A stretch of 51,554 nt of DNA from a virus. Its lineage: Duplodnaviria; Heunggongvirae; Uroviricota; Caudoviricetes. The DNA lies in the IMG/VR virus record IMGVR_UViG_2531839664_000034, one strand, 5' to 3'. The notes below the pieces were generated by a model, which saw nothing but the letters and a program-made list of their open reading frames with translations, had not been told where the DNA came from and did not search any database. Positions 172-18,297 of this stretch are shown in pieces; within the stretch, counting starts at the first letter, position 1; every line of letters begins with the position of its first letter. Made by a program: the position numbers and the translations under genes.

Positions 172-351
172 GTGGGAACCAAAGTGTCAGATATGCAGAA
201 AAATGTGACTCCCGGCAGGCGAAAAGGCTGCCCTAATTATCCTCCCGAATTTAAACAGCAGCTCGTTGCTGCCTCCTGTGAACCCGGGATATCCATCTCA
301 AAACTTGCTCTTGAAAATGGCATTAACGCCAATCTGTTGTTCAAATGGCGA
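172..351 (+). pseudogene. IS66 TnpA (orfA) of element B, N-terminal fragment, interrupted at 351/352
   Basis: ORF 172..420 is TnpA-like (PEFKQQLVAAS...GINANLLFKWR) up to position 351; the frame is continued exactly after the inserted element at 3061. Confidence 0.7.
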
Positions 352-433
352 GTAAGCGCCCCATCTGCGACGTCTTGTGAAAATTGTCCTGTCTGGCAAC
401 AATCGCGCCCATCTATATAGATGGACACGAACG

Positions 434-1108: not shown

Positions 1109-1452
1109 TAACGCTGCCAACCGGTACCAGAATCTGGATCATCGCTGGCATCACAGATATGCGTTGTGGCTTCAACGGCCTGGCTTCGAAGGTGCAGAAC
1201 ACGCTGAAAGATGACCCGTTCTCCGGGCATATCTTCGTCTTCCGGGGCCGCAGTGGCAAAATGGTGAAAATACTGTGGGCCGATCGTGACGGGTTATGCC
1301 TGTTCGCCAAACGCCTGGAACGGGGCCGCTTCGTCTGGCCGGTAACCCGGGAAGGGAAAGTGCACCTGACGCCAGCTCAGTTATCCATGCTACTGGAGGG
1401 GATCGCGTGGCAACATCCCAAACGGACAGAACGGCCTGGCATCCGGATATAA
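1105..1452 (+). CDS. tnpB: IS66-family TnpB (orfB)
   Basis: 115 aa, MITLPTGTRIWIIAGITDMRCGFNGLA...; overlaps orfA stop (ATGA); canonical IS66 orfB size and sequence. Confidence 0.85.
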   Translation: MITLPTGTRIWIIAGITDMRCGFNGLASKVQNTLKDDPFSGHIFVFRGRSGKMVKILWADRDGLCLFAKRLERGRFVWPVTREGKVHLTPAQLSMLLEGIAWQHPKRTERPGIRI

Positions 1453-1471
1453 CCCGTGATAAAACAGGGGA

Positions 1472-3028
1472 ATGAACAACACACTCCCCGACGACATCGA
1501 GCAACTGAAGGCCCTGCTGATCGCACAGCAGGCTGTTATCGTCCGTCTGTCTGGTGAAATAACCGGCTATGCCCGCGAGATCAGCTCACTCAGAGCGCTG
1601 GTCGCTAAACTGCAGAGAATGTTGTTCGGTCGCAGCAGCGAGAAAAGCCGCGAGAAGACAGAAAAGAAGATCGCACGGGCAGAAACGCGTATAACCGAGC
1701 TCCAGAACAGGCTTGGTGAGGCGCAGTTGCAACTCACCTCAATGGCCGGAGAGACAGCGCCGAAAACATCAGACTCTCCCGTCCGCAAAGCACTTCCGGC
1801 AACACTTCCCCGTGACAGGCAGGTTATCTCCCCGGCAGAAACCGAATGCCCCGTCTGCAGCGGCAAACTGAAACCGCTGGGAGAAAGCATCTCTGAACAA
1901 CTGGATATCATCAACACCGCGTTCAGGGTAATCGAAACGGTTCGCCCAAAACTGGCCTGCAGCCGGTGCGACTGTATAGTTCAGGCTCCGCAGCCACCAA
2001 AACCCATCGAGCGCAGTTACGCCAGTCCGGCTCTGCTGGCCCGCATAATCATGGCTAAGTTCGCCGAGCATCTGCCGCTGTACCGTCAGTCGGAAATCTA
2101 TGCCCGCCAGGGCGTGGAGCTGCACCGCAATACGATGGGGCGCTGGGTTGACATCATGGGAGAGCAGCTTCGCCCGCTGTATGATGAACTGAAGCACTAT
2201 GTGCTGATGGCGGGTAAAGTGCATGCCGATGACACGCCGGTAAATGTACTGGAGCCGGGTCAGGGTAAAACCCGTACCGGACGGCTGTGGGTCTATGTTC
2301 GTGACGATCGCAACGCCGGTTCGACCATGCCGGCAGCGGTGTGGTTCTCATACTCTCCCGACCGCAAAGGCATCCACCCACAGCAACATCTGGCGGACTA
2401 CAGAGGTATCCTGCAGGCCGATGCATATGCGGGTTACAATGCTCTTTACGAAAGCGGTCAGGTAACCGAAGCGGCTTGTATGGCACATGCCCGACGCAAG
2501 ATCCACGATGTACATGTCCGCCATCCAACGACAGTAACGGGAGAAGCGCTCCGTCGTATCGGGGAACTGTACGCTATCGAGGCTGAGATCCGCGGCAGTC
2601 CGGCAGAAGAGCGACTGGCGGTCAGAAAAGCCAGAACGGTACCGCTAATGCAGTCGTTGTATGAGTGGCTCCAGGGGCAGATGAGCACGCTGTCGCGCCA
2701 CTCGGATACAGCGAAAGCGTTCACCTATCTGCTGAAGCAATGGGACGCTCTGAACGAATACTGCCGCAATGGCTGGGTGGAGATCGACAATAACCTGTGT
2801 GAAAACGCCCTCCGGGTAGTTGCACTGGGGCGGCGTAACTACATGTTCTTCGGCTCTGATGGTGGAGGCGAGAGTGCGGCAGTGATGTACAGCCTGATCG
2901 GTAGCTGCAAACTTAACGGAATCGAGCCGGAAACGTGGCTACGCCACGTGATCAGTGTAATCAACACCTGGCCTGCCAACCGCGTGAAAGAGTTGTTGCC
3001 CTGGAATGTCACTCAATCTGTAAACTAA
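1472..3028 (+). CDS. tnpC: IS66-family transposase TnpC
   Basis: 518 aa with N-terminal coiled coil/leucine zipper, CxxC...CxxC zinc-finger (CPVCSGKL...CSRCDC) and DDE-region motifs ([14 protein letters not shown]) typical of IS66 TnpC. Confidence 0.85.
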
Positions 3029-3060
3029 TTTTTACCCCACGTCCTTCACGGTGCGCTTAC

Positions 3061-3290
3061 AATGGCGACAACAATGGCGCGAGGGAAAGCTGCTATTACC
3101 TTCTTCAGAGAGCCCCCAGCTACTTCCTGTGACTCTCGATGCAGCTGCCGAACAGCCAGAATCGCTCGCAGAGGACCCGGAAACCCTCAGTATCAGCTGT
3201 GAGGTAACGTTCCGGCACGGGACGCTCCGCTTCAATGGCAATGTCAGCGAAAAGCTCCTGACTCTGCTGATACAGGAACTGAAGCGATGA
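3061..3290 (+). pseudogene. IS66 TnpA (orfA) of element B, C-terminal fragment
   Basis: Reading 349-351 (cga) directly into 3069 onward gives ...LFKWR-QQWREGKLLLPSSE...LLIQELKR in one frame, matching ORF 3051..3290. Confidence 0.7.
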
Positions 3291-3634
3291 TCCCGTTACC
3301 TTCCGGGACCAAAATTTGGCTGGTTGCCGGTATCACCGATATGAGAAATGGCTTCAACGGCCTGGCTGCGAAAGTACAGACGGCGCTGAAAGACGATCCC
3401 ATGTCCGGCCATGTTTTCATTTTCCGGGGCCGCAGCGGCAGTCAGGTTAAACTGCTGTGGTCCACCGGTGACGGACTGTGCCTCCTGACCAAACGGCTGG
3501 AGCGTGGGCGCTTCGCCTGGCCGTCAGCCCGTGATGGCAAAGTATTCCTTACACAGGCGCAGCTGGCGATGCTGCTGGAAGGTATCGACTGGCGACAGCC
3601 TAAGCGGCTGCTGACCTCCCTGACCATGCTGTAA
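3287..3634 (+). CDS. tnpB: IS66-family TnpB (orfB), element B
   Basis: 115 aa [27 protein letters not shown]..., paralogous to 1105..1452. Confidence 0.85.
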
Positions 3635-3683
3635 ATCTCTTTATCCTGGTTGTCACAGAATAAGCCCGGTAAAATACGGGCTT

Positions 3684-5222
3684 ATGAACGACATCTCTTC
3701 TGACGACATCTTCCTGCTGAAACAGCGCCTGGCCGAACAGGAAGCGCTGATCCACGCCCTGCAGGAAAAGCTGAACAACCGGGAGCGCGAAATAGACCAT
3801 CTGCAGGCGCAGCTGGATAAACTCCGCCGGATGAACTTCGGCAGTCGTTCCGAAAAAGTCTCCCGCCGTATCGCACAAATGGAAGCCGATCTGAACCGGC
3901 TTCAGAAAGAGAGCGATACGCTGACTGGTAGGGTGTATGACCCGGCAGTACAGCGTCCGTTGCGTCAGACCCGCCCCCGTAAGCCGTTCCCTGAATCACT
4001 ACCCCGTGACGAAAAGCGACTGTTGCCTGCGGCGCCGTGCTGCCCGAACTGCGGCGGTTCACTGAGCTATCTGGGCGAGGATACCGCCGAACAGCTGGAG
4101 TTGATGCGTAGCGCCTTCCGGGTTATCCGGACGGTACGGGAAAAACATGCCTGTACTCAGTGCGATGCCATCGTGCAGGCACCTGCACCTTCGCGGCCCA
4201 TCGAGCGGGGTATCGCCGGACCGGGGCTGCTGGCCCGCGTGCTGACCTCGAAGTATGCAGAGCACACCCCGCTGTATCGCCAGTCAGAAATATACGGCCG
4301 GCAAGGTGTGGAGCTGAGCCGTTCACTGCTGTCGGGCTGGGTGGATGCATGCTGCCGGCTGCTGTCTCCGCTGGAAGAGGCGCTTCATGGCTATGTCATG
4401 ACTGACGGCAAACTCCATGCCGATGATACCCCGGTCCAGGTACTGCTGCCGGGTAATAAGAAGACGAAGACCGGGCGGTTGTGGGCGTATGTTCGTGATG
4501 ACCGCAATGCCGGGTCAGCGTTGGCACCTGCAGTGAGGTTCGCTTACAGCCCGGACAGAAAAGGCATCCATCCGCAGACTCATCTTGCCTGCTTCAGCGG
4601 TGTGCTGCAAGCGGATGCGTACGCCGGGTTCAACGAGCTGTATCGCAATGGTGGGATAACGGAAGCTGCCTGCTGGGCTCATGCCCGCCGAAAGATCCAC
4701 GATGTGCACGTCCGCATCCCGTCAGCACTGACGGAAGAAGCCCTGGAGCAGATCGGTCAGTTGTACGCCATAGAGGCGGATATAAGGGGAATGCCGGCAG
4801 AGCAGCGGCTTGCTGAACGTCAGCGAAAAACGAAACCGCTGTTGAAATCCCTGGAAAGCTGGTTGCGTGAAAAGATGAAGACCCTGTCGCGACACTCAGA
4901 GTTGGCGAAGGCGTTCGCGTACGCACTTAACCAGTGGCCGGCACTGACGTACTATGCGAACGATGGCTGGGTGGAAATCGACAACAACATCGCTGAAAAT
5001 GCCCTGCGGGCGGTCAGTCTGGGTCGTAAAAACTTCCTGTTCTTCGGCTCTGACCATGGTGGTGAGCGGGGAGCGCTAGTGTACAGCCTGATCGGGACGT
5101 GCAAACTGAATGACGTGGATCCAGAAAGCTACCTTCGCCATGTGCCTGGCGTCATAGCAGACTGGCCGGTCAACCGGGTCAGCGAACTGCTTCCGTGGCG
5201 CATAGCACTGCCAGCTGAATAA
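3684..5222 (+). CDS. tnpC: IS66-family transposase TnpC, element B
   Basis: 512 aa; same architecture as 1472..3028 (CCPNCGG...CTQCD zinc finger, [14 protein letters not shown]). Confidence 0.85.
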
Positions 5223-5261
5223 CACATCCCCGTCAATACGGTTCTTGCTGCACGCTTACCA

Positions 5262-5477
5262 ACAAACCGGCCCACACCAGAAGCGATTATGGCAAACTAC
5301 CAACTGAATGAACAATTACTGGAGGGATGCAGGCCCTGGATTGTTATTTTTGATGACGTTCTTACTGCCGGTAGCCATTTTAAAGCGATGAAAAGCCTGA
5401 TACTACAACATATTCCTGAAGCCTGTATACTGGGACTCTTTGTTGCCCGAACAACCCGGGGAGCTCAAATTATTTAA
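5262..5477 (+). pseudogene. C-terminal fragment of a phosphoribosyltransferase (PRTase)-fold protein, 5-prime end removed by IS66 element B
   Basis: Open frame runs from the IS66 boundary (5259) without a plausible N-terminus; PRTase signature hydrophobic-DD-V-x-T-x-G (WIVIFDDVLTAGSHF) near the C-terminus. Confidence 0.4.
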
Positions 5478-5494
5478 AAAGGGTAAAGTACTCC

Positions 5495-7879
5495 TTAAAA
5501 TGAAAGCCCTTCACCATCAGCCACAATCCTGTACCCCATCGCCTTATAACCCCGCTGGCGTTTATCCCACATTCTGAGCAGCACTGGATACGCGGTATCC
5601 ACAAAATCAATGATCCTGACATCGCTTTTACCGGTATGCTCTCTGTGTAGACGTCCCGCATACTGCTGTAATGTCCCTTTCCATGACACAGGCATGGCAA
5701 GAATCAGCGTATCCAGCGGAGGGTGGTCAAATCCCTCACCAATAAGTCTGCCTGTTGACAACAAAATACGGGGAGAATCAGGAGGAAGAGCATTCAGCCC
5801 GGATATCAGCATCGCACGCTTTTTTTTCGATAGTCGTCCATGGAGAATAAAGGGGGACAATTTCAGTGAATTCATCACTGATGCTATCTCATCCAGATGA
5901 TCTGTACGTTCAGTCAGTACCAGAACTTTTCGCCCCTGCCCGAAAGCTTTCATGGCTTCTTCAGCTATCGCCACCGTTCTGTCATGATCCAGAGCAATTT
6001 CTCTGAAAATATCCTGGATTCTCGCATCCGATGGTAAATGACCAGATGTAAAACGGGAACGGGTCAGTACCTCCAGATTATGTGGGCTTTCCTTCGGGCG
6101 GACCGCTGTATGGCGAATGGCACCACAGTACATAAAAATAATGGGATGCAGACCATCCCGTCGGATTGGTGTTGCCGTCAGGCCAAGCAGATATCTGGCA
6201 TTCGTTTCCTTCAGAATCGCAGAAAATGAAACCGCGCCAATATGATGGCACTCATCCACAATGATTTGCCCATAATTCCTGACCAGAGGTTCAACTTCTC
6301 CGTGTCTGGATATGGACTGCACCACCGCAATATCAATATTGCCACAGGGTTTATGTTTACCTCCCCCGATAATACCAATATTGTCACCAACCTGCAGAAA
6401 CACCGCGAGACGCTCCTGCCACTGCTTCAGCAATTCAGTCCGGTGTACCAGTATCAGTGTATTCACTTTCCGTCTGGCAATCACTGCCGCTGCGGTAACT
6501 GTCTTACCAAAAGCCGTTGGCGCACAAAGCACACCAGTGTCATAACGGAGTAATCCCGAAACGGCCTCTTCCTGCTCCGCTCTGAGGTTTCCCATAAAAA
6601 CGGCATTACATTCCGTCCCGGCAAATCGTTTATCGATTAATTCTGCAGCAATATTGTTGTCCCTAAGGAAAGATAATACGCTGTCCAGACATCCCTGGGG
6701 CAACGCAATGTGTTGCGGGTAATTCTCCGCACAACCTATAACACGGGGCTTATTCCAGACTGACATACGCATTGCCTGAGCCTTATAAAACTCAGGGTTC
6801 GGAAATGCTGCCAGCCGAATAAGTCGGTTAATCAGCACCTGAGGTAATTGCGCTTTTTCGAAATAGATCTGGTTTGCCAGCGTGATTTTCAGCGGTTCTG
6901 CAATAGAAATATTCAGTCTGTTTCCTGATGATTTTTTCCCTTCCCATGGCGTACCCAGGTCTTCTTCGTTGATAAAGTTCACATCCAGAGGATGGATACT
7001 TCCTGTAGCCCGTAATATCGTCGGTTCAATATTCTGCACATTCATCGGGATCACCGATGCAAGAAAAGCCCATTGATCAGAATAAGGCTGGAAATTCATA
7101 TCAACAAAAACACTTCCCCCCGATTCACGCGGTCTTTTTTGCAGAGGTAATGCTATGAGATTACCAAATCCCCCTTTTGGCATCGTATCCTGATTAGGAA
7201 ATAATCGGTCATAAGAACCCAATCGCAGCTGTCGAGTTCGATTACACGTATAACTAATAATAGCAGTCCCCAGACGGCGAGCTTCGCGGGCCGAAACTCG
7301 TGAAGCAAAAAATATCCAGACATGCGCTCCCTGACGTGAACGGGATATTTCCAGCGCAGCGGGTACACCCAGCTCATCACAGGATCGCATGAATGCGGAT
7401 GCATCCTTCTGCCATTCAGCTTCATCAAAATCAACTGCCAGAAAATAACAGGAATCATCTTCCAGCAACGGATACATCCCGACAGTATGGGTACCTGCCA
7501 GATGGTAGTAGATGACGAGATCAGATACAGGAATCAACTGACGGTGAGCGCAGTCCCCACATTTTATCCGGGGCTTACCGCATATTCTCGCCTGCCATTC
7601 GTTAGCGCAGGCAGGAGAGTACCCTGATTTGCCGCTGGTTTTACTTTCCCATCTAAGTGCCCATACATCATCACGCCCGCGAAACAACCGACGAAATAAT
7701 GCAACCTTCTCATTGGTGGATAATACAGAAACGCGCTGCACAGAGATCGGCGGTTTACGTCGCCATTCAATCCCATGAGCTTCAAGTAATGAGACCAGAC
7801 GGGCATTTTCTGCCCTCAATGCAGCTAATTCATCGCTGTCAGATTTATGAACCATATTCGTTACCTGTATCCGATCCAC
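5495..7879 (-). CDS. Primase-like (AEP/PrimPol-like) N-terminal domain fused to SF2 DEAD/DEAH-type helicase
   Basis: Helicase motifs APTAFGKT (I), IIVDECHH (II), GLTATP (III), QQYAGRLHR (VI); N-terminal Cys cluster (CGKPRIKCGDCAH) and AEP-like motifs LAVDFDEAEW and GAHVWIFF. Track start 7879 is GTG; ATG at 7855 (MVHKSDSD) has a better Shine-Dalgarno. Confidence 0.6.
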   Translation of the reverse strand: MDRIQVTNMVHKSDSDELAALRAENARLVSLLEAHGIEWRRKPPISVQRVSVLSTNEKVALFRRLFRGRDDVWALRWESKTSGKSGYSPACANEWQARICGKPRIKCGDCAHRQLIPVSDLVIYYHLAGTHTVGMYPLLEDDSCYFLAVDFDEAEWQKDASAFMRSCDELGVPAALEISRSRQGAHVWIFFASRVSAREARRLGTAIISYTCNRTRQLRLGSYDRLFPNQDTMPKGGFGNLIALPLQKRPRESGGSVFVDMNFQPYSDQWAFLASVIPMNVQNIEPTILRATGSIHPLDVNFINEEDLGTPWEGKKSSGNRLNISIAEPLKITLANQIYFEKAQLPQVLINRLIRLAAFPNPEFYKAQAMRMSVWNKPRVIGCAENYPQHIALPQGCLDSVLSFLRDNNIAAELIDKRFAGTECNAVFMGNLRAEQEEAVSGLLRYDTGVLCAPTAFGKTVTAAAVIARRKVNTLILVHRTELLKQWQERLAVFLQVGDNIGIIGGGKHKPCGNIDIAVVQSISRHGEVEPLVRNYGQIIVDECHHIGAVSFSAILKETNARYLLGLTATPIRRDGLHPIIFMYCGAIRHTAVRPKESPHNLEVLTRSRFTSGHLPSDARIQDIFREIALDHDRTVAIAEEAMKAFGQGRKVLVLTERTDHLDEIASVMNSLKLSPFILHGRLSKKKRAMLISGLNALPPDSPRILLSTGRLIGEGFDHPPLDTLILAMPVSWKGTLQQYAGRLHREHTGKSDVRIIDFVDTAYPVLLRMWDKRQRGYKAMGYRIVADGEGLSF

Positions 7880-8009
7880 TGAGGCACCACGGCAGAAATT
7901 CGGGTCCCCTACACTGATGACAAAGCGCCCCGCCCTCTTCTGCCTATTAACTCAAGCACCTCCCAACAACTTACAGAAACTTAATTCTAATACCTAATAC
8001 AACTGTAAT

Positions 8010-8573
8010 TCAGTTATGTCGTGGTCGGCCCCGGTTGCTTTTTTCGGGAAGCCTGCTACGGCCCAGAATAATACCGTGTTCTTTCTGATCCTGTTTAGCC
8101 AGATAGCTAAGGGCGTAACGTAAGTTGTCTACCGCGGACTTATCACTATAGTGCATCACGTGATCGATACGCACCGGGTATTTGTCTTTAGCCCTGCACA
8201 GGTGAAAATAACCCTCCCCTTCCGTGATCCGCCTCCAGATATCTCCTAGTTGCCTGGATATCTGATAAGATTTCTTGTGACGTTGCCCATCCAGGTAGCC
8301 GACAAAATGAATATGAAGCCCTTTGTCTGGTGTATATTCCATTACCCAGTAATATCCCGCCAGCATCGTCTGGGTTTCGCTAAGTAAACGGTATATTTCC
8401 ATACACATACTGTGCCTACAGGAATGACCAAAACTGGGCGAGTCTTTCCTGTAGGCAAAATCAATTCTGAAAGGTAACAGTTTAGAAAAACGTTGAAACA
8501 TACCGTCCATGTGTTCATTCACGTCTTTCAGAATCATGAAATCCATTTTGTAATTGGGATTGGCATTATACAT
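8010..8573 (-). CDS. YagK/YfjJ-family (inovirus Gp2-like) protein typical of P4/CP4-57-like islands
   Basis: 187 aa; resembles the remembered YfjJ family (e.g. YPVRIDHVMHYSD region) and sits in the yfjI-yfjJ order of CP4-57-like elements. Confidence 0.5.
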   Translation of the reverse strand: MYNANPNYKMDFMILKDVNEHMDGMFQRFSKLLPFRIDFAYRKDSPSFGHSCRHSMCMEIYRLLSETQTMLAGYYWVMEYTPDKGLHIHFVGYLDGQRHKKSYQISRQLGDIWRRITEGEGYFHLCRAKDKYPVRIDHVMHYSDKSAVDNLRYALSYLAKQDQKEHGIILGRSRLPEKSNRGRPRHN

Positions 8574-9585
8574 TTTATAGTCCTTACTTTATAAAACTCA
8601 CAGGAAGAGAGAATTACGTAAATACTGAGAGTAGAGAAACGCCGTACCACGGCATTAATAAACGAAGTAAACCAGCAGCACAGACAACCTGATAAAACTG
8701 TTTTGTATTACCGCATTACTGTAATGAGGTAATACTTCAGAATACAGTGAGACTCTCTTAAACTGAGAACCAGTACGAATTACAATGGAAAAACACACCT
8801 CATAGAATTGAGTTTCAGGAAGCACCACTAAATTCTTTACAGGAAGTAATCTGACATTCACAAAAGTCAGCTATAGAATAGCCACAGACAACATCGCTAT
8901 TAATATTGTCGTACCATTAAGTGAAAACAGCGACTCTGCAGAGAGCAGCCTACAGATATTTAATCAGTAGCATAAAAGAATAATGACATACAGACCATAC
9001 GCTACACACCATAAAAAGATTGTTTCATACAAAAAAGATAATATTTACCCATGCTTATAAACTGTAACGGAGCTATAACGTACGAACTAAAGACAATATA
9101 CTCTAATAGTGTGCTGGTACGTAACCAGTGTTAAATGCAAACCAGACATACATTCAGCGGATTAACTTTCTCAATATTACGCTATGAGTGTAGTAACATA
9201 ATTTACACATAACTAAACTCCATACACCACCACACTGTAGTATATGGGGATAGACGCATTACGCACATACAGAATACTCAGCATAAAGAGGAGTGACATT
9301 ACGATAAAAAGAGACAACATAACAGATAACATAACTTCCACTAATAATACTAATTAACCTTAATTATTTATTGAATACGAAAACAATGAAGTGCCCTCCT
9401 TATCTAAGGCCAAAGCCAGCAATATCCTGTACAACACTCTATCCAATAGTAAATAGTAGTTACACCAGTTATATTTACTGACTGACCTGTACCAGAGTTC
9501 TGTAATACAACACTGACATGGTCATGGCATTAATCTCCTCCGCAAGTAACGGAGGAGACTATATGTTACTCAACGATTAAGTCGT

Positions 9586-11019
9586 TCAGAGGTCAAAGTT
9601 AGGTGCGACACACAACGTTTTTCCCTCAATAACCGGTACAACTCTGTTTTGTTCATACAGTAAATCCAGTAACCAGTTGATTTTATCCTTTTTCCGGAAA
9701 CGGTTCGGACCACGCTGTAAAATGTCATTTTTTTTCATACAGAGGATCCCCTTCTCAATGCAATAGCTTTTTATCCAGTTGAAAAGTTCAAGCTCCTCTG
9801 GAATGAGTCGCACAGGTACGGTCAGAGCAGTGTTGTCAAAAGTTAACGGATTAGACAACCGCATATACTCATTACCGTACCATATTGCTAATTCTCTCGC
9901 CATTTCTGCAGTGTAAGGGGAAATCTCCCCCTCTTCACCGCTCGAATGGTAAATAAGTCCTGCCAGTCTTGCCATATACTCTGCATTTTTGGCAGCATAT
10001 TCCCGACAATGTCTTAAAGGCCCCAATCCCCCCAGTTTCGATTCCACATCGTTGTAATAATCCGTCCAGATTCTGGCAGCCTGAGGAGAAAAGTGAAGGC
10101 AACGTCGTTCACCACTCATCGCCAGACTTTCATCAATAAGTTCATTGATCCTCTTATCAAATAACTCCTGATACTGTGATGAATAATTATCTCCGGTTAT
10201 TATCCTTGTCCCCTGCATTGATGTTGGTTGACACATCAAAAACCTTGCATGATGTCCTGACGTTTTCACAAGTTCTTTTTTTCGCGTACAAAAACCTTTG
10301 TGGTAAACATCAGGCTGAATCATCGCCGACATCGTCAGTCTTGGCTCCTTCAAATTAATTCCGGGAGATGATTTCCTGTCGATGAAAAGAGAACCTCCAT
10401 CCCACAAAGTGTTAATAATTCCCAGTTTACTCATGGCCCGGCTGTCAAAAATTACTCCCCCTTCACTGGATACAAGAGCAAAAGAACGATTGCTATCGGA
10501 GTAATATTTTAACATTCCCTCTATCGTTGTATCATTAAAAATTGTTCGACGTATCTGCGGCGGAACAGGAGAGTTATTCAGATGCGTTTCAAGCTCTGAT
10601 TCTGTTGCCTTGTAATCTTTACCGGCACGAATCTCTTTATGAAATTTTGATTCCAGCGCTTTTTGTTTTTGCTCCCATATTTCCTTTTCTGTACTGTAAT
10701 TCTCAACCAGTTTCGCGTATTCTTCCGCCAGGGCTTCATCCCTGAGATAAAATGCTTTCATAAACACTTTATCCACGGTCGTTTTCCTTTCACCGGAATC
10801 AGCCAGAATCAGAGAGTAAATATTAACGGGCCCACGTAAATTTCCAGGTCTGCACACGTCAATCTGATTCTGACAGGCAATTGACATCGCTGTTAATGCG
10901 GATGTCGCCACCATAGCCAAAGGAGCCTGTGTATTTTGTTGAGTTTCAATTATTGCATTTCTCACCAGCGGTGGTAGTGCATATATCGGATAAGGATTTT
11001 CTGGTGCTAGTAAGCACAT
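9586..11019 (-). CDS. YfjI-like (DUF3987-type) island protein
   Basis: 477 aa; size, position next to AlpA-like gene and remembered similarity to CP4-57 YfjI; function unknown. Confidence 0.5.
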   Translation of the reverse strand: MCLLAPENPYPIYALPPLVRNAIIETQQNTQAPLAMVATSALTAMSIACQNQIDVCRPGNLRGPVNIYSLILADSGERKTTVDKVFMKAFYLRDEALAEEYAKLVENYSTEKEIWEQKQKALESKFHKEIRAGKDYKATESELETHLNNSPVPPQIRRTIFNDTTIEGMLKYYSDSNRSFALVSSEGGVIFDSRAMSKLGIINTLWDGGSLFIDRKSSPGINLKEPRLTMSAMIQPDVYHKGFCTRKKELVKTSGHHARFLMCQPTSMQGTRIITGDNYSSQYQELFDKRINELIDESLAMSGERRCLHFSPQAARIWTDYYNDVESKLGGLGPLRHCREYAAKNAEYMARLAGLIYHSSGEEGEISPYTAEMARELAIWYGNEYMRLSNPLTFDNTALTVPVRLIPEELELFNWIKSYCIEKGILCMKKNDILQRGPNRFRKKDKINWLLDLLYEQNRVVPVIEGKTLCVAPNFDL

Positions 11020-11114
11020 AAAGCCTCCATTTTCATTAATGGGTTAGTAAAGTTGCAGCAATTTCCGCTACAATAGCGAAAATAGCTGCTATTCAGACTG
11101 AAAATACAAACAGT

Positions 11115-11342
11115 TCATCTGGTCTGAATCCACCAGAGAAGGTCACTTAGTAACCAGCCACAAGATTTCTTTCCGATAGTCTTACGCGGTGGGTAGTTTC
11201 CCTCTCGTTCAAGTTTCCAGGCTTGTGAACGGGAAATTGAGGTGATCTCTTTTCGTTCCTTTTCACGTACCAGTCTGTCACCCTCAGTCCCATAGGCTTT
11301 CAAAATTACTGAACGTTGCTCATCTGTTAATGGAACCCACAT
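11115..11342 (-). CDS. AlpA-family small HTH regulator
   Basis: 75 aa with C-terminal ...YPPRKTIGKKSCGWLLSDLLWWIQ pattern resembling AlpA/phage transcriptional regulator. Confidence 0.45.
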   Translation of the reverse strand: MWVPLTDEQRSVILKAYGTEGDRLVREKERKEITSISRSQAWKLEREGNYPPRKTIGKKSCGWLLSDLLWWIQTR

Positions 11343-11978
11343 GACGGCCCTCCTGATATATCAATGATTCTTATCTCAGTTGTGAGCATGAAATGACTGA
11401 ATTTCCTGGACAATCCATAGTGGAGATTCCGTTGTCATATTGCTCACAGAACACCCATGGACAGCAAGGTACATACGAAAACAAATCAAGTCAAGTTAAG
11501 GCAAGTAAAACAATACTTGACTCACAAGTCCACTCATAGGTCAATATGTGTTGATTAGCAACAAAACAACCAATAATGCACATTACAAACAATGATTTTA
11601 AGCCAAGAAGTGGTTTTCACTGTTGACAATGACACAAAATGAATCTAGTATCGACTTCATGTTATGCTCAGATAAACTTCTGACAGTGATAGTAAAGAAG
11701 AGAAGGAGGGGGTTAAATTTGTGACAAAGATCACAAAAATAAATTAATTTTTACTATTCACAATAGGAGGGAAAGAGAGCCAGGCATTTTACCTGTCATT
11801 GAAATGACAACAACAGCTTCAACAGATCGGAATATTCAGGAGGAGGAAGAAGAAGGAGATCTGACGGGTGTTATAATTGTTACAACACGCTGGAGGAAAA
11901 TTATCGTAATAATAGATGCATTCTCAGGTATACCCTGTATCACCCCGAAAACACGGCAGGCATCCGTTTTATTAGTAG

Positions 11979-13685
11979 ATGCAGACTCAGTATCAACGTA
12001 TCCTTTCAGGAGATAACATCGATTTTAACTGCCAGTATCCGGTATGCGGCAAAAGGAAACCTTCTTACATAATGGTAAATCAGACTATGCAACAAAATCA
12101 GTACTATCGTATTTTATCCGGAGAATCCCGCCCATTCCCTGGCATATATGAGGCTGTTTCCGAACAACTCCTTTTGCTCATTTTTAAGGCACGTCAGCTA
12201 TATCAGGATCCAGAATATCGCCCCTGGTTTGAAGAACAGCACAAAGTTCTCTTGGCATTGCGTGATAATACAGAGCTCCAGAAAATTTTTAACAAACAAA
12301 GAAAAGAAAATTTTGCTCTTGGCGCATCTACATCGTCTCAACCCACTGCTCTTACTAATGCGCTTAATGTTATGTGCCATTTATACAATGGCTTTGATGA
12401 AGGAAATATCAGCCTGAAAAGCTGGGGAGCGATGCAAGAGGTACAGACAACACCAGACTTTTTCAGCCTGGGACCAAGAACCTGGAAAACACCTGAACTG
12501 GCAAAGTTTGTAGGAGATGATTTATTTAATATTCTGACTGAATGTAAAGCCTGGAGTTCACCAATTCCAGCAGAAGCCCGGCAGGGGTATTGCCATCAGG
12601 ATCTGTCTGTTGCGCACTCCTGCACCTCAGAGTTGCTGGCACACCTGAAGCAGTATCATGAAATAGATGAATCAACAATACTTGCCATAACCATTGGTCT
12701 GGCGGTCAACGAATTCTACCAGTATAAGCAAAATATTCCAGAATGGCTTTCCTGTTTTGAGAATAAGAACAAATGGCCCTGGGACTGCAGGAAGTCAGAT
12801 ACTGAAGATGTGCACAGACTGAGAGAACGACTATCGATAATCGGATGTACAGAATTCGTAAAAAATATGTTCTCAGTCGCCAGTCAGCATGAAATAAAGA
12901 CAATGTACAATATTTATGTCCATATTTATGCAGCTGAAATCTGCGGTTGGGTAAAAACAAGCATGGCATATTTTAAACCAACAGATTTCATCCAGTACAC
13001 ATGGAAATTCGCAACAGTTACTCCGGATAAAGATGAAAAAACCGAGAATACGACCGCATGGGAAAGGGATTATTGTCAGATAACCATACAACGAGATGAA
13101 CTCCTTAGATTGATTCGCACTAATACTCTGCAGGATGCAGCAATTCATCTTTCAGGCTGCCTGCAATATGCATATCTGGAGTCTGTAAAGAATGATATTG
13201 ACTATCCTGGAATAGCCCCTAATGCTGAAGAAAAGAAAATGAAATACACAGATTCTATTGAATTTTCTGGAATTAGGAATAACATCATAAATGCAGTAAA
13301 ACGGCTGGAATCATTTGAAAAATGGTATGAAACTAATAAAGTTTTGTTGGTAAGTAATAAAACAATACGAACAGAGAAGATTGACGTTGTTGTACGACTT
13401 GCGGGACTGAAAGCCTATGATTTGCAGGAAGGGGTTCCTGATGGTCTGAAATGGAAAGTTAAAGATGGCATAAATGAACGCATCAAAACCGATACCAGTT
13501 TATGCCTGCCTCAGGATATCAGTGATACATCGCTAAACCGTTATCGTCACGCTGTGACGCGCATTGTCAACGACGAAATCGACACATTACTGATGGAACA
13601 GAAGAAAAAAAATAAAAGATTCCCCTACAGCAAAGATCGACATGCGATCCAACCTTTATGGAGCAAATGCGTGATCGAGCAGTAG
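11979..13685 (+). CDS. Hypothetical protein, AT-rich island cargo, no recognisable domain
   Basis: 568-aa ORF, opposite strand to the island backbone, lower GC than neighbours; start uncertain (internal ATGs at 12070, 12088). Confidence 0.5.
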   Translation: MQTQYQRILSGDNIDFNCQYPVCGKRKPSYIMVNQTMQQNQYYRILSGESRPFPGIYEAVSEQLLLLIFKARQLYQDPEYRPWFEEQHKVLLALRDNTELQKIFNKQRKENFALGASTSSQPTALTNALNVMCHLYNGFDEGNISLKSWGAMQEVQTTPDFFSLGPRTWKTPELAKFVGDDLFNILTECKAWSSPIPAEARQGYCHQDLSVAHSCTSELLAHLKQYHEIDESTILAITIGLAVNEFYQYKQNIPEWLSCFENKNKWPWDCRKSDTEDVHRLRERLSIIGCTEFVKNMFSVASQHEIKTMYNIYVHIYAAEICGWVKTSMAYFKPTDFIQYTWKFATVTPDKDEKTENTTAWERDYCQITIQRDELLRLIRTNTLQDAAIHLSGCLQYAYLESVKNDIDYPGIAPNAEEKKMKYTDSIEFSGIRNNIINAVKRLESFEKWYETNKVLLVSNKTIRTEKIDVVVRLAGLKAYDLQEGVPDGLKWKVKDGINERIKTDTSLCLPQDISDTSLNRYRHAVTRIVNDEIDTLLMEQKKKNKRFPYSKDRHAIQPLWSKCVIEQ

Positions 13686-13777
13686 AGTTCTGAGGGGATA
13701 ACCGAGCTGTTATCCCCCGTTTATTCTGCCAACTCTCAGGTCTGTCAGAGTTCCAAGAATACGATGCGGCTGGCAAA

Positions 13778-14374
13778 TTATGCGGCTTTTCCATTAACAG
13801 ATTCGGCCACAAGAACAACACCGTGTTTATTTCGATCAGGATGTTCACTCCAGATTTCTGATTCAGGAATACTTTCCCCGTCATAGCAGATCCGATCGCC
13901 ATCAAACGGATAATACCGTGCGGAATCAGTATCTAAAATAAACACTTTCAGATTCGTTGAACGACGCGCTATATGCTGCCAGAGGGCTTTACCTCCTTCA
14001 TATTGCTCGTTATCACTTAATAGTATAACGCCCGCTTTTGTGGCTACCGTTTCATATACAAACGTCGCAAGGCCAACATCACGTACAGCCCCATCAACAA
14101 CAATCCCTTCAATCTGAGCGACGTCCTGCTCTTCCCAGAATTTCCGGACAAACACCCCTTCAAGCTGTGAGCGACGCTGAAGCTCCAGAGTGGCAACAAC
14201 TTTATGGCGAATATCACCATCAATAACAGAAGGTGCAGCTTCGATTACCGCAGCGAACGGAGTCTTTGGATCCCAGATGATCTGGTAAAGCACGCCCTGA
14301 ATAGTTACTCCATCCAGTATCGAAAAACGACGAGCTACAGTAGCAGGGGAGTAAGACATTGGAATTACAGCCAT
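13778..14374 (-). CDS. Hypothetical protein downstream of integrase
   Basis: ORF 13778..14404; ATG at 14374 (MAVIPMSYS) preceded by GAGGGG Shine-Dalgarno; no recognised motif. Confidence 0.5.
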   Translation of the reverse strand: MAVIPMSYSPATVARRFSILDGVTIQGVLYQIIWDPKTPFAAVIEAAPSVIDGDIRHKVVATLELQRRSQLEGVFVRKFWEEQDVAQIEGIVVDGAVRDVGLATFVYETVATKAGVILLSDNEQYEGGKALWQHIARRSTNLKVFILDTDSARYYPFDGDRICYDGESIPESEIWSEHPDRNKHGVVLVAESVNGKAA

Positions 14375-14503
14375 TTTTGAATCCCCTCTGAGTAATACAG
14401 GCACAAAAATTTACCTCAATAATTATAGTAAACAATACAAGAACTAGGTGCATCAACAATACCCATCAATTGTACGCAATTCGTACAGTAACCAGGAACT
14501 CCC

Positions 14504-15820
14504 TCACCTTCTGCCAAACAGATTGACAACATTATTGCCTGTTTGCTGTTGATAGTTATTAACCCGATCCTCCCAGATCTCAAGTGCTCTGCGTTTTTCT
14601 GGCAAATAATCGTATCGATCATAATGTTTTGAACTGACATCGTTCAACGCATGATTTTGAATACGATCGCGGATTTCCTTACTGATTCCAGCTTCTCCCA
14701 TTAACGTTTTACAGGTCCGACGTAAGTCACGTGCTGTAAAAATTTTAAAGTCAGGATTACAAGCCCGGAAATACATGATAGCGCGAGCCAGACTGTCCGT
14801 ACGAACCGGACGCTTACCATTAGTCGAAAGCGGGAAAATGTAAGGGCTCGATTTTTCTTTTGTTAACTCCTGCACACAGGCTAATTCCTGTAATGCTGAT
14901 TCAGTCAACGGTATCAAATGCTCTCGTTTATTTTTAGAGACATCCGCAGTCACCAGCAGCGTTTTTTGCTGAAAATCAACATCACACCACTGACTGGCGA
15001 TCATTTCAAAGGGACGTTGCCCTCCGGTATAGATACAGAATCGAATCAAATGTTGCATCAATAATCCAACGTTGGTTGCTTCAGCAAAATGTTCCATTAG
15101 AAAACGCAACTCTTCGAGTGTCAGCCAGGTGTCACCGACTTTTTCTGCAGATGACTGTTTCGGTATCACTGATACAGGATTGGCCTCCAGCCCAAAACTA
15201 ATCCCTACACTTGTGTTCATCGGATCGTTATCAGCTTTCAGACCATAGTTAAATGCAGCCATCAGGTAAGAACGGATCCGGTTAGAGTGAACCACAGCAC
15301 CGCGCTGAATGATCCCGGCCAAGATATGTTTAATCTGTCCGGAAGTCACATCTTTAGCTTTAGTCTCACGGGGGATCACTGTATAGCATTCATTTTCAAG
15401 GCGTTTCAGAACATCCTGCCATGTTCTCTTATTATCAATTTTCATTTTGTTAACATAACCATGAATCAATGCTTCAAATGAACCCTGTGATTGATGGAGT
15501 TGTCTCCGCTGCTGTTCTGCAAGCTGTTGTCGCTCCAGTTCTGTCTGGGGATCCTTTCCTTCAATGAGCCAGGCACCATACTTTTTTGCCAGTTCGTTCG
15601 CTGTGGCCAGTTTCATCTCAGGCCATATACCCAATTGAATGAATCTTTCTTTTGTCCCTTTTTCCACGTAATAGCGGAAATAGAAAATTTTGCTGCCAGA
15701 AGACTGAACTTTGACGCCAAGTCGTCCAGTGCCACGTTGAGAGCTATTGCTCCAGACATAGAACGATGTCTTTTTTGCTTTTAATGCTCGAATAGCTGTT
15801 TCAGTTAGATTGACGGCCAT
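14504..15820 (-). CDS. int: P4-type tyrosine integrase
   Basis: 438 aa; N-terminal arm-binding-like region, C-terminal catalytic region with conserved R...HxxR...Y spacing (e.g. HDLRRTCKTLM); lies about 200 bp from a tRNA 3-prime fragment. Confidence 0.85.
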   Translation of the reverse strand: MAVNLTETAIRALKAKKTSFYVWSNSSQRGTGRLGVKVQSSGSKIFYFRYYVEKGTKERFIQLGIWPEMKLATANELAKKYGAWLIEGKDPQTELERQQLAEQQRRQLHQSQGSFEALIHGYVNKMKIDNKRTWQDVLKRLENECYTVIPRETKAKDVTSGQIKHILAGIIQRGAVVHSNRIRSYLMAAFNYGLKADNDPMNTSVGISFGLEANPVSVIPKQSSAEKVGDTWLTLEELRFLMEHFAEATNVGLLMQHLIRFCIYTGGQRPFEMIASQWCDVDFQQKTLLVTADVSKNKREHLIPLTESALQELACVQELTKEKSSPYIFPLSTNGKRPVRTDSLARAIMYFRACNPDFKIFTARDLRRTCKTLMGEAGISKEIRDRIQNHALNDVSSKHYDRYDYLPEKRRALEIWEDRVNNYQQQTGNNVVNLFGRR

Positions 15821-16016
15821 AGAACCTCTTTTCTAAATCAGTAACAATCAAAATAACTCGTAAATTTGGGTCAGGTAATGGGTCAGGTAACGATCGTACA
15901 ATGGAGAAAAAACGGAACCAAGCGGAAACAGAAGAAATTACATAATTAGTTGATTATAAACAATTAATAAAACAATTACGAACAAACCAAAACAATACAG
16001 AATGGACTTGCCTCAT

Positions 16017-16063
16017 GACTCATAATCGCTTGGTCGCTGGTTCAAGTCCAGCAAGGGCCACCA
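16017..16063 (+). tRNA. 3-prime 47-nt fragment of a CAU-anticodon tRNA (tRNA-Ile2/Met-like); probable att core, not an intact gene
   Basis: GACTCATAATCGCTTGGTCGCTGGTTCAAGTCCAGCAAGGGCCACCA: anticodon loop CTCATAA, T-arm GCTGG-TTCAAGT-CCAGC, acceptor 3-prime strand and CCA; no matching 5-prime acceptor strand (GGCCCTT) upstream. Confidence 0.6.
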
Positions 16064-16818
16064 AATCATCATTCATGTATCAGGAAGAGTTAAGGGTACA
16101 AGGGGTACTCGATGGCGGTCTATATTTCATGACTAACGCCATTTCAAGGAAGAAGTGCGGTGGGTGGTTTCGAATGAGGGCTGGTGTTTTGGTACGTGGC
16201 ACGCCACTGCAATGTATTTATTCATCAGTACTCATTCAAAAGTACCTGGAAAAAATGCCCGCTATGCCAAGCGGGCAAATTGCTTACATGTGGAATTAAG
16301 TAATTAACGATAAAGCCAGAGTATTATCATTTATCATGCCTCTTCATTTAATCAGGTTAATTACTCAAATCACTGAACTATTCTCTGTTCGCTCACTGAT
16401 GATAAGTGAGTGTCACAACCACGATTTGTATGCGGGCCAATGCCGTAGAGTAAGGATGAAATGTCTCTGCCACGCCTTAAACATCTACTACTGACCAGAA
16501 TACCCGTCGCAGGCAGATGAGTCTTGTGAGCGTTACAGGAGTCTGGCTTTGCTCATTAATCAACGCTATTTAGATATAAATTTCTAACACTCGAAAAACG
16601 AATTTCACTAATAAATTATAACGGGTGGTTTTTATCATACAGCGAAATAACTTTTTGTTTATTAAATTTAACATTCTTGTGCTAATTTAATTAAAAGTTC
16701 CATGCGTAGCATGTGAAGCAGTTAATGTTAGTAATCGTCTCAAATGAGCGATTTTTTATAGTGACAAACAGTAATAACGTTAAAAATAGCCATGTAGACA
16801 ATAACTGAGGAATAGGCA

Positions 16819-18297
16819 ATGTTAGTTAGTAAAAGTAATGGCCATAACGTTAATACAGTTTTGGGTAGTAGAAGTTGTAATGAAAACAATTCTTCCAACC
16901 CCATGGAGCTACTAGCTTATAGTATTATAAATTTAATTTGTAAGGAAGCTGCCTCAGGGACATATCGCGGTGCTCTTGAAACTTTACAAAAAATGATGTC
17001 TGAATGTATATATCATGAAGGCAACGCCTTTGTCATTATGGGATCTGGAGAGCAATTAAAACGTATTAAATATGATGTTGATGAAAATAACTTAAAAGTA
17101 TTCAACGTATACTTTGATAATAATGAAGAGTTAGTTACTGATGGTGAGCCTGACGTAGTATGTTTAAGCAAGCAGGTCTGGGAAGATCTTCTCATTAAAC
17201 TAAAGCTGGAGAACAAAGAAAATGCGGTTTCTGAAACTGACCTGTCATCGAATAAAAATAATGTTGATCAGTTTATTGAATGCGCTAAGAGAAATGAACA
17301 GACCCTATTCGATAATATAAGAAAAAGTGATTTTCATGTTGATTCATTTAAGCTAGGTAGTACACGTAGTGTTATTTTAGAAACACAACCAAATGTCTGT
17401 ATGGAACCACATAATTTATATGACAACCAAATAGATAAGGTTTCACCTGTAACTAAAAACTCTCAGCAAGTTAAAGGCCACTATGGAGATAAATTTAAAG
17501 AAATGCAGATGTTCCTTAGCTAGATGAGCAATGCACTTCAACAGACTCCATCTTTGTCAGAGTCAAAGGAACACACCATAGATATTCAAAAAATAACGGA
17601 TGCCTTTGTGAAAGAATTCCGGGGGGTATTAATTGATAAAAATGGAAATTGTTCAGAACGTTTATTCAATTTTTATGAGTGCTGCTATAAGTTTTTACCA
17701 AGAGCGCAGCCTCAAGATAAAATCGAAAGCTATAATTCAGCACTACAAGCTTTTTCCATCTTTCGTTCATCTACTTTGAATAATAATGATGTAGGGTTTA
17801 ATTTCAAATTATTCCCAGAAGTCAAGCTGTCTGGTGAAAATCTTGAAACGGTATTCAAATACAAAAAAGGAAGTTTTGTCCGGGAGATAGCCAGAATTAA
17901 CATTACTCTCCAAAAAGAAGAGGATGGTTTATATAATTTAGGTGGATTGGATTTTAAGGGATGCTTCTTTTCTGGACAGAACTTCAGTAACTATGATATT
18001 CAATATGTGAACTGGGGAACGTCATTGTTTGATCTTGATACTCCGTGTATTTTTAATGCGCCTGCTTACAACAAGAGTAATGAAAAATCATTAAAACCTG
18101 TGAGCGAAAACGGTTTAAGTGGAGTCTTGACTGATCGTAATAATAAAATAAAACTCATCACGGGCGTGGCACCATTCGATGATATTTTATCTATGGATGA
18201 TGACTTTGATGATAGTTCCTCTGAGGATGATCCCGTTGAGAATAGTCCTGTTGTGACTAGTCCCGTTGTATCAAGTTCTAAAAGCAGTTTTCAATGA
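16819..18297 (+). pseudogene. Single reading frame of about 491 codons split by one in-frame TAG (17521-17523); hypothetical protein with pentapeptide-repeat-like segment
   Basis: ORFs 16819..17523 and 17524..18297 are in the same frame, separated only by the amber codon; segment GLDFKGCFFSGQNFSNYDIQYVNWGTSLFDLD is pentapeptide-repeat-like. Confidence 0.4.

Follow-up and report, generated by a model that had tools for sequence, protein, structure and literature searches.

The window, by which I mean the whole stretch of 51,554 nucleotides that was analysed, contains an island of the P4/CP4-57 type, the relevant features of which are collected in Table 1. Between the integrase gene of the island and its AlpA gene lie two open reading frames that the initial annotation took for cargo of this slot, a view that I share. 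Both are real and intact, at 11979..13685 (plus strand, 568 aa) and 13778..14374 (minus strand, 198 aa), and they are convergent, as described, with a hairpin of 9-bp stem between them (13694-13717) that is likely the terminator of the large gene. The length of the smaller protein is counted from its ATG; the version extended to a GTG has 208 aa. A spacer of 729 nt separates the AlpA gene from the large gene, which is transcribed divergently from it. The large gene had been called markedly AT-rich, but the bias is only modest: its GC content is 40.7%, as compared to 45.6% in the window and 43.4% in the integrase gene.

Table 1. Coordinates (in the window) of the features at the cargo locus and its surroundings. 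A dot marks a feature with no strand assigned.
Feature	Position	Strand	Remarks
DUF3987/YfjI gene	9586..11019		island backbone beside the AlpA gene
AlpA-family regulator (context)	11115..11342	-	Pfam Phage_AlpA, E = 2e-13
Sigma-70-like promoter, TTGACA-17-TAGTAT, upstream of the palindrome	11623..11651	+	10/12 consensus positions; predicted
Perfect palindrome TGTGACAAAGATCACA, CRP-box core TGTGA-N6-TCACA	11720..11735	.	upstream of most family genes examined
In-frame upstream extension, decayed copy of the gene's N-terminal coding end (QYQRILSGDNIDF)	11979..12071	+	non-coding relic
Large cargo gene, 537 aa	12072..13685	+	soluble, mostly alpha-helical orphan-family protein
Hairpin GGGGATAAC-N6-GTTATCCCC, followed by a T-rich tail	13694..13717	+	terminator scan and sequence
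GNAT-fold acyltransferase gene, 198 aa, PmgF-like beta-rich N-terminus	13778..14374	-	
Shine-Dalgarno sequence AGAGGGGA, 7 nt before the ATG of the 198-aa gene	14382..14389	-	read from the sequence
P4-type tyrosine integrase (context)	14504..15820	-	Pfam Arm-DNA-bind_3, Phage_int_M, Phage_integrase
tRNA 3' fragment, CAU anticodon loop through CCA; att-site end of the island	16017..16063	+	read from the sequence

Identity with the O121 reference island ends exactly at 16063, the last nucleotide of a tRNA fragment that I take to be ileX; ARAGORN found no complete tRNA in the window. None of the canonical P4 genes psu, delta and sid was seen in the island, which is thus not a canonical P4. A search of Rfam with positions 11000-16500 gave only a chance snoRNA match (E = 0.22). 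The slot was expected to be variable, and between islands this holds: in a related island, whose integrase is 77% identical and which occupies the same chromosomal site, a Fic/DOC gene and two other hypothetical genes take their place. Within E. coli, however, the pair does not behave as a cassette that varies freely: the same block is fixed beside this integrase type and beside tRNA-Thr in 678 complete genomes.

The reading frame of 568 codons is longer than the gene it contains. All of the 31 homologues begin at the equivalent of position 12072, as does the PGAP annotation, giving a protein of 537 aa, and the upstream stretch that would encode QYQRILSG is missing from every homologue. It had been pointed out that this stretch is nearly duplicated a short distance downstream, with two suggestions: either the true start lies downstream and the upstream site is a duplicate, or the N-terminus has been tandemly duplicated over a short length. 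At the level of protein the duplication stands up (QTQYQRILSGDNIDF compared to QNQYYRILSGESRPF scores 44, a value reached by none of 5000 shuffles), but at the level of DNA the match of 20 of 27 nucleotides does not by itself reach significance, 97 of 2000 shuffles doing as well. Of the two suggestions, the downstream start is borne out: in the allele found at locus L009, stop codons break up the upstream copy. The boundaries of megablast blocks, at 11982/11986 or 12101, coincide with the positions of the two copies. The upstream stretch does not code for protein and represents a degenerate copy of the 5' end of the large gene.

Upstream of the gene lies the perfect palindrome, whose core, TGTGA-N6-TCACA, occurs just once in the window as an exact match (0.07 expected). 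It was found in 18 of the 27 loci fetched (from Escherichia, Proteus, Aeromonas, Atlantibacter, Citrobacter and Phytobacter) and also in the Klebsiella and Enterobacter loci fetched later. The palindrome is invariant amongst E. coli alleles whose leaders have otherwise diverged, and promoter-like hexamers recur at the same place in the diverged alleles, as read by eye from the alignment. The exact core and its A/T-rich flanks are those of CRP sites, and the genera with the palindrome all possess CRP. If it serves as a CRP site, the palindrome would directly link nutritional state to the expression of a cargo gene of a mobile element. In most genera, however, it does not occupy the position of an activator site but lies 12-17 nt before the start codon, a placement that fits repression, or an operator for the family protein itself, better than classical CRP activation. 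It is a putative CRP site, and one that the family protein might instead bind as its own operator. There is no support for a riboswitch or other structured leader, as the 433-nt leader RNA does not exceed shuffled sequence in stability (z = +0.44). Small open reading frames in the 729-nt spacer show no conservation, and the one of 70 aa (11804-12016) is frameshifted in the L006 allele.

The large protein was described as having no recognisable motif, and broader searches agree. It has no match in Pfam, PADLOC, NCBIfam, PHROGs or PDB sequences, the last also by sequence profile, and neither cargo protein matches any model of PADLOC-DB v2 at E ≤ 1. Pfam gave no match to four fragments of the protein and no consistent weak family over all 32 family members at E ≤ 10. 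No fold match was found: comparison with viral structures by Foldseek returned nothing below E = 0.008, with TM-scores of about 0.1, and the structural matches to helix-turn-helix and winged-helix domains are weak. The family has only 41 representatives in 1.84 billion protein clusters, all of them proteins of a single domain architecture and about 490-560 aa, and none of the 50,697 deposited phage genomes contains a member. The idea that the protein is membrane-bound or secreted was rejected, since it has no hydrophobic segment. The large protein is thus a soluble cytoplasmic protein, mostly alpha-helical, from a rare orphan family. A full-text search of the literature with 12 protein accessions matched no paper, and the sites of the block go unmentioned in the paper on E. 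coli defence islands.

Residues E31, Q32, R41, D109, R170, Y173 and H175 are invariant in the family down to 19% overall identity. The pair R170-x4-H175, which conforms to the R-x(4-6)-H motif of HEPN proteins, is invariant in the 32 close members and in 19 highly divergent ones. Neither sequence profile nor structure comparison detected the four-helix HEPN fold in the 537-aa protein.

The 198-aa gene had likewise been said to lack a motif, and here the description was mistaken. Its product has the GNAT fold, with a mixed beta-sheet and the acyl-CoA-binding core beta4-alpha3-beta5-alpha4, and the pyrophosphate-binding motif Q/R-x-x-G-x-G/A, which lies between beta4 and alpha3, appears as R98-D99-V-G101-L102-A103 (RDVGLA), invariant in 22 homologues. 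The weak match to Pfam Acetyltransf_1 spans residues 70-114, exactly the region of this motif, while none of the curated GNAT models gives a significant match (Acetyltransf_1, E = 0.059, 14.1 bits as against a cut-off of 20.7); NCBIfam and the PDB sequence-profile search gave no match. I conclude that the protein is a divergent GNAT-fold acyltransferase, one that probably acylates some host or phage target.

Its relatives are found in phage-plasmids. PHROG 7349 matches residues 3-66 (E = 1.3e-11), P1 PmgF shares 44% identity with residues 4-66, and over its full length the 198-aa protein is 89% identical to the proteins in the pmgF slot of RCS47 and SJ46. In RCS47 this homologue occupies the slot from bplB to rlfB; in the window, by contrast, the gene does not reside in a P1 genome. 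The homologues in P1-like phage-plasmids lie in a non-essential, variable region (PMC10695390; PMC9603915), and P1 pmgF is itself non-essential and of no known function (PMC10695390). A structural role in the phage was rejected on this ground and because the fold is that of an enzyme. The GNAT gene is found without the large gene in more than 100 P1-like phage-plasmids, beside a lambdoid integrase, and in one F-like plasmid, where 3.5 kb separate it from traM/oriT and an ArdA-type antirestriction gene adjoins it on the opposite strand. Neither the window nor any of the P1-like, F-like and prophage contexts has an open reading frame for an RHH/DUF1778 antitoxin next to the GNAT gene. The same accessory enzyme evidently moves between P1-like phage-plasmids, conjugative plasmids, prophages and islands.

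Of 5426 complete E. coli genomes, 678 carry the block of two genes; it occupies two different tRNA sites, is seen in all allele classes, and its carriers include O121 STEC and ST131. E. albertii and Salmonella have the two genes arranged in this way too. Those E. coli records labelled as plasmids that contain the pair also contain chromosomal flanks (proA/proB or nfeF) and so provide no evidence that the pair moves on plasmids. The large gene is intact in all 678 genomes, with dN/dS of 0.24-0.52, and the 198-aa gene is under strong purifying selection. Pseudogenes or decaying reading frames were rejected, since both genes are intact in the 678 genomes and have dN/dS below 1. The alleles of the large protein are 58-93% identical (97% in one near-identical pair), as compared to 93-99.5% for the neighbouring GNAT, and the divergence of the large gene is concentrated in codons ~200-420. 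Synonymous divergence is 0.3-1.15 in the large gene against 0.04-0.2 in the GNAT gene, about 2- to 6-fold apart in most allele pairs, which indicates that the two genes have had different histories.

Outside Escherichia and Salmonella, all loci examined have the large-family gene without the GNAT. In K. pneumoniae it lies in a P2-like prophage between gpS and gpV, in Enterobacter at the end of a lambdoid prophage beside umuDC-like and colicin genes, in Proteus next to a PvuRts1I-like restriction enzyme, and in an IncFII plasmid it is flanked by IS elements and has a Dcm methylase and a DUF4145 protein in its vicinity. Integrase-proximal examples occur in Vibrio (where the gene is not adjacent to alpA), Aeromonas and E. 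coli, and one locus is a chromosomal site adjacent to mnmE without island genes. Nearly all of the family loci examined outside Escherichia and Salmonella have a divergently transcribed partner, either an acidic protein of 137-149 aa or a glycine-zipper protein together with a protein of 88 aa. The acidic partner (64-77% identity) diverges along with the large protein (58-73%), across a fixed spacer of 336-348 nt. Escherichia-type loci have no divergent partner, and tblastn found no relic of a lost acidic, glycine-zipper or 88-aa partner in the window. The vehicles of the family in Gammaproteobacteria are thus prophages, plasmids and integrative islands, and it mostly travels as a compact module that includes a small divergent partner.

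These addresses are hotspots for defence and accessory genes with variable neighbours, as hotspots are defined in PMC9122126 and PMC13586616, though such evidence is circumstantial. P4 cargo loci and the hotspots in P2 tail genes are documented reservoirs of defence systems, and in one study six of eight randomly chosen, unannotated P4 cargo loci protected against phages (PMC13586616; PMC9122126). It is from location only that an anti-phage role for the large gene is drawn, and the gene may plausibly be considered a credible and undescribed candidate for anti-phage function or conflict.

How the two genes are to be understood together is a separate matter. The explanation I prefer, with a confidence that falls somewhat short of even, is that they are two separate cargo genes of mobile elements, linked in the islands of Escherichia and Salmonella, the large one most likely engaged in anti-phage or inter-element conflict. 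Against it must be counted that the two are never found apart on the E. coli chromosome. This constant adjacency, at both tRNA sites, in all allele classes, and in E. albertii and Salmonella as well, is what one would expect if they made up a single two-component system, in which the 537-aa protein would be the sensor or regulator and the GNAT would stand in for the acidic or glycine-zipper protein of other genera and might, for instance, be an acetyltransferase effector that shuts down translation on activation. The divergent partner is missing precisely from the Escherichia-type loci and present in nearly all others examined, and defence systems are often built from a conserved core whose partners can be exchanged. 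I nonetheless think a single system unlikely. The genes are convergent and so belong to separate transcription units, their synonymous divergences differ as noted, the large family does without any GNAT in all other genera, and the solitary occurrence of the GNAT in P1-like plasmids, an F-like plasmid and a lambdoid prophage is hard to square with a dedicated toxic effector.

Prophage morons can serve functions other than defence, which weighs against the defence part of the preferred reading. One or both genes might serve the element in some other way, the GNAT as an enzyme of anti-defence or host takeover, the large protein in superinfection exclusion or as a virulence or metabolic moron. 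The neighbourhood of the GNAT homologue in the F-like plasmid and the non-essential region it inhabits in P1-like phage-plasmids speak for this, as does the virulence gene espI, carried by the window's island in the reference genome. The antirestriction gene, however, is on the opposite strand, neither protein is linked to a known virulence or metabolic family, and the large family is absent from deposited phage genomes, so that I judge such service quite improbable. Least probable of all, and by my reckoning very much so, is that the large protein is the master regulator of the island, sensing a helper phage and controlling the divergent alpA-yfjI operon in the manner of Stl in SaPI-type satellites. 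Its gene does lie near the integrase and diverges from alpA across a spacer that holds promoter-like sites and the conserved palindrome. Like satellite repressors it is mosaic and hypervariable, and there are the weak matches to helix-turn-helix and winged-helix structures. But a Stl-like repressor would be expected to belong always to the regulatory region of its satellite, divergent from the replication or excision operon, an arrangement the large family shows in E. coli islands and not in the P2-like (there within the tail operon), lambdoid, plasmid or mnmE-adjacent loci, where it has its own divergent partner rather than the alpA operon; nor is the Vibrio gene beside alpA.

To return to two separate cargo genes, one may imagine how the large one would work. 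The invariant polar cluster, including R170-x4-H175 (an HEPN-type RNase motif), might form an active site directed at nucleic acid, with the helix-turn-helix-like region near the C-terminus possibly binding it. The mosaic, hypervariable middle (~residues 200-420) could determine what the protein recognises, and the conserved palindrome could place its expression under cAMP-CRP. Taken to its full extent, the proposal would make the 537-aa family the conserved core of a new anti-phage or conflict system, having a fold with no solved relative, an Rx4H-type catalytic centre, a recognition region shuffled by recombination, interchangeable partners (acidic; glycine-zipper membrane protein plus 88-aa protein; GNAT) and gating by a CRP box. 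I offer this full version tentatively, as possible but on the whole doubtful.

About one in eight complete E. coli genomes has the block, at the position where mobile elements keep conflict genes, and neither protein has a known function. Should the large protein prove to be a defence protein, it would add to the known repertoire a family without recognisable domains, and its natural partner swaps and mosaic alleles would allow one to map which part senses what.

From the GNAT superfamily, which includes the AtaT/TacT toxins, the smaller protein differs in several respects: besides falling below Pfam thresholds, it has a beta-rich, PmgF-like N-terminus in place of the usual alpha1-alpha2 helices, and unlike the AtaT/TacT genes, which have an RHH/DUF1778 antitoxin adjacent, its gene has none beside it. 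It shares sequence with the slot proteins of P1 (PmgF), RCS47 and SJ46 (PHROGs 7349, 7522), but PmgF has only 98 aa and lacks the GNAT core, and the P1-like slot genes reside on phage-plasmids whereas the 198-aa gene is found in the chromosome, on the downstream side of an island integrase or tRNA-Thr. The large protein does not fit Crouga, Bandua, Aernus, Toga, Reve or Hailong (PMC13586616), being set apart by their domain descriptions. It resembles the HEPN RNases (RnlA/LsoA, AbiD/F, Cas13, Csm6) in that its family is all-alpha, with an invariant R170...H175 and invariant E, Q and R upstream; by analogy with them, the small partner of the family could act as an antitoxin, in a context typical of defence genes. 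With the anti-phage systems of P2/P4 hotspots and integrase-proximal sites (Rousset et al. 2022; Moura de Sousa et al. 2026), the large family shares its addresses (the integrase-side slot, the P2-like tail slot, prophage ends and an IS-flanked plasmid region), and likewise a patchy distribution, small module size and the swapping of partners.

The initial annotation had placed two cargo genes between an integrase and the alpA backbone, and its coordinates and gene order for the open reading frames, integrase and backbone are correct. The two reading frames stand as observed; the start codon of the larger, the fold of the smaller and the degree of AT-richness required correction. Nucleotides 1-16063 of the window are 99.99% identical to an island that E. 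coli O121:H19 shares with related strains. The match to this reference breaks off exactly at the CCA end of the partial tRNA (16063), beyond which the reference has nfeF and the window has other, low-GC DNA (31-36% GC around 16400-18000), suggesting that the same att site received a second element in tandem. The 794-aa protein may be the island's replicative primase or a component of another conflict system.

Features of the island, other positions of the conserved palindrome, and loci of the large-gene family
Feature	Position	Strand	Remarks
Partial tRNA	16017-16063		47-nt 3' fragment, CAU anticodon loop, CCA end; island end
P4-type tyrosine integrase	14504-15820	minus	first gene inward from the tRNA-fragment end
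198-aa ORF	13778-14374	minus	good Shine-Dalgarno sequence
Hairpin, likely terminator	13694-13717		between 198-aa and large ORFs
Large ORF	stop at 13685	plus
Spacer			729 nt, between large ORF and alpA
Palindrome in window	11720-11735
alpA	11115-11342		island backbone
Further backbone genes			beyond alpA: yfjI/DUF3987; inovirus Gp2-type gene; PGAP-labelled TOTE-conflict-system primase
794-aa protein	5495-7879	minus	PGAP: 'TOTE conflict system archaeo-eukaryotic primase domain-containing protein'
Palindrome elsewhere	L005 8034-8049; L010 6968-6983; L012 6971-6986; L014 2907-2922; L021 6955-6970; L024 6931-6946
Type A, Vibrio parahaemolyticus and Aeromonas			adjoining integrases
Type A, Proteus mirabilis			island also with PvuRts1I-like restriction enzyme
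Type A, Siccibacter
Type A, K. pneumoniae IncFII plasmid			flanked by IS elements
Type A, K. pneumoniae P2-like prophages	L031-L033, 4040-6438		between gpS and gpV
Type A, Enterobacter lambdoid prophages			cargo end
Type B			Atlantibacter; Citrobacter murliniae; one metagenomic contig

The large gene, first read as 568 aa from 11979, encodes a protein of 537 aa, since every one of the 31 homologues found among 5.8 billion proteins starts at the position equivalent to 12072 (MVNQTM...), as does the PGAP annotation. The 31 in-frame codons upstream contain QTQYQRILSGDNIDF, whose likeness to residues 8-22 of the real protein, QNQYYRILSGESRPF, exceeds that of all 5000 shuffles. The DNA match of the two copies (20/27) is not significant by itself, and the mismatches fall mostly at third codon positions, a combination that fits a copy of the gene's 5' end that has since decayed, and not a recent tandem duplication. 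The upstream copy is retained in a 79%-identical allele (L006) and interrupted by stop codons in a 69%-identical one (L009), and I conclude that it is a non-coding relic. Megablast blocks from other E. coli genomes start where one or the other of the two copies lies (11982/11986 or 12101), which suggests a past recombination junction.

Neither the whole protein nor four fragments of it matched Pfam, NCBIfam, PADLOC or PHROGs, and nothing consistent emerged over the 32 family members. A profile search of all PDB sequences gave no match, and HMMER, run exhaustively with a profile against 1.84 billion cluster representatives, found only 41 proteins, all of the family, the full-length ones being about 490-560 aa without added domains. 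No transmembrane segment is predicted, and AlphaFold2, given the family alignment, returns a mostly helical, fairly confident model (pLDDT 77.9, pTM 0.78). Residues E31, Q32, R41, D109, R170, Y173, H175, L178, W311, I339, D450, S484, R490, P528 and W530 are invariant down to 19% identity. None of the deposited phage genomes encodes a member.

The genomic contexts of the family fall into three types. In type A, the large gene lies across an AT-rich spacer of 336-348 nt from a divergent gene for an acidic protein (137-149 aa, pI about 4.05). The large protein (58-73% identity) and the acidic protein (64-77%) diverge in step, as expected of a functional pair, which they would then constitute. In the contig index, the acidic protein of the K. 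pneumoniae prophage locus has entries in 122 blocks. Within the first ~45 nt of the spacer on the acidic-partner side, directly upstream of that partner's start codon, type A loci (L004, L012, L028, L035) carry a conserved GC-rich inverted repeat, e.g., GCGAGGCAACA..CCTCGC, which could be an operator or form a hairpin in the 5' UTR. In type B, the divergent position is held by genes for a glycine-zipper protein (104-107 aa) and an 88-aa protein. E. coli, E. albertii and Salmonella have type C, that of the window, in which there is neither a divergent partner nor a relic of one and the 198-aa gene is convergent at the large gene's 3' end. One island, with a 68%-identical allele (L009, 1-2871), also has a gene for a protein of 1652 aa or more that combines NERD, kinase-like and UvrD/AAA_11/AAA_12 helicase domains, likely another defence gene.

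A palindrome, TGTGACAAAGATCACA, is the sole TGTGA-N6-TCACA in the 51.5-kb window (0.07 expected). Of the 27 loci fetched, 18, from various genera, have this core ahead of the family gene, as do additional loci from Klebsiella and Enterobacter. It fits the core of the CRP consensus, and all hosts concerned have CRP, making it a putative CRP box. Its end lies 12-17 nt ahead of the start codon in types A and B, just before the ribosome-binding site, a position that looks more like that of an operator or repressor site than of a site for class I or II activation. In the Escherichia alleles it is invariant, yet lies ~300-375 nt upstream of the gene, separated from it by an insertion that includes the 5'-end relic; in E. 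coli, an alignment read by eye places a -10-like hexamer downstream at activator-like spacing. No unusual structure and no Rfam match was found for the leader RNA.

The 198-aa protein, in which no motif had at first been recognised, is a GNAT-fold enzyme. Its one Pfam match, Acetyltransf_1, is below threshold and covers an invariant loop, R98-D-V-G101-L-A103, that fits the Q/RxxGxG/A acyl-CoA motif. Its N-terminal 66 residues are 44% identical to PmgF of P1 (PHROG 7349), and over its full length the protein shares 89% identity with the product of the pmgF-slot gene in the P1-like phage-plasmids RCS47 and SJ46 and in about 130 plasmid records. In P1, pmgF is dispensable (PMC10695390), and rlfA-rlfB-pmgF is among eight variable regions of P1-like elements (PMC9603915). 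Further homologues (68-75% identity) sit next to a lambdoid prophage integrase and, on an F-like plasmid, beside an ArdA-type gene at a distance of 3.5 kb from traM. On this Enterobacter plasmid (L018, 3036-6606) the 75%-identical GNAT gene is near SLT, DUF5983 and ArdA-type antirestriction genes, on the strand opposite to the antirestriction gene and across traM from the tra genes, the expected leading-region side. The GNAT protein is, to judge by this distribution, a promiscuous accessory enzyme of mobile elements.

Do the two genes form one system? Of 5426 complete E. coli genomes, 678 have the 2.4-kb block containing both (11986-14377) at a coverage of at least 80%. It occurs at two sites, the tRNA next to nfeF, where the integrase accompanies it, and the tRNA-Thr next to proA, where there is no integrase, and on the E. 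coli chromosome the two genes are effectively never apart. This speaks for an obligate pair, but the genes are convergent, each is found on its own elsewhere, in other elements and genera, and their histories differ sharply, so that such a pair seems unlikely. Between alleles, the GNAT is 93-99.5% identical (dS 0.04-0.20, dN/dS about 0.03-0.18), whereas the large protein, one near-identical pair excepted, is 58-93% identical (dS 0.3-1.15, dN/dS 0.24-0.52), with near-identical N- and C-terminal stretches around a highly divergent middle (codons ~200-420). Judging from these comparisons, the large gene is thus a mosaic of old alleles produced by recombination, next to a conserved gene. I favour, tentatively, two independent cargo genes over the obligate pair; the GNAT may also have replaced the large gene's missing divergent partner in role.

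At the tRNA-Thr/proA site (E. coli 2-1 and K-15KW01; L015, L016; ~8811-9796), the tRNA and the GNAT gene are ~310 nt apart, without an intervening integrase, and in strain 2-1 an IS3 element takes the place of the remaining island, the two-gene block being kept.

The suggestion that the integrase-proximal slot is variable is supported by a related island, that of E. coli NCTC9064, at the same chromosomal site. Its integrase is 77% identical to the window's, and the integrase-alpA interval (L037, 4936-6956) holds instead a Fic/DOC-family gene, a 52-aa ORF and a gene for a 337-aa hypothetical protein, so the slot varies between island lineages. Despite this, the block of GNAT and large gene is fixed within the window's lineage. 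The Fic/DOC-family gene, directly downstream of the integrase, occupies the GNAT's position, and both islands thus have a protein-modifying enzyme immediately after the integrase.

The context suggests an anti-phage role for the cargo genes. In P2, P4 and related elements, defence systems are found at genomic addresses like those of this family, and six of eight randomly chosen unannotated P4 cargo loci gave phage protection in a recent study (PMC9122126; PMC13586616). The 537-aa family, uncharacterised, without detectable relatives and with a distribution typical of conflict genes, is a reasonable anti-phage or conflict candidate. Compared by domain description, none of the systems named in that P4 cargo study (PMC13586616) fits the protein; among many comparable candidates, the large gene is set apart by how common it is in E. 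coli, and by its partner swapping, mosaic hypervariability and conserved CRP-type palindrome.
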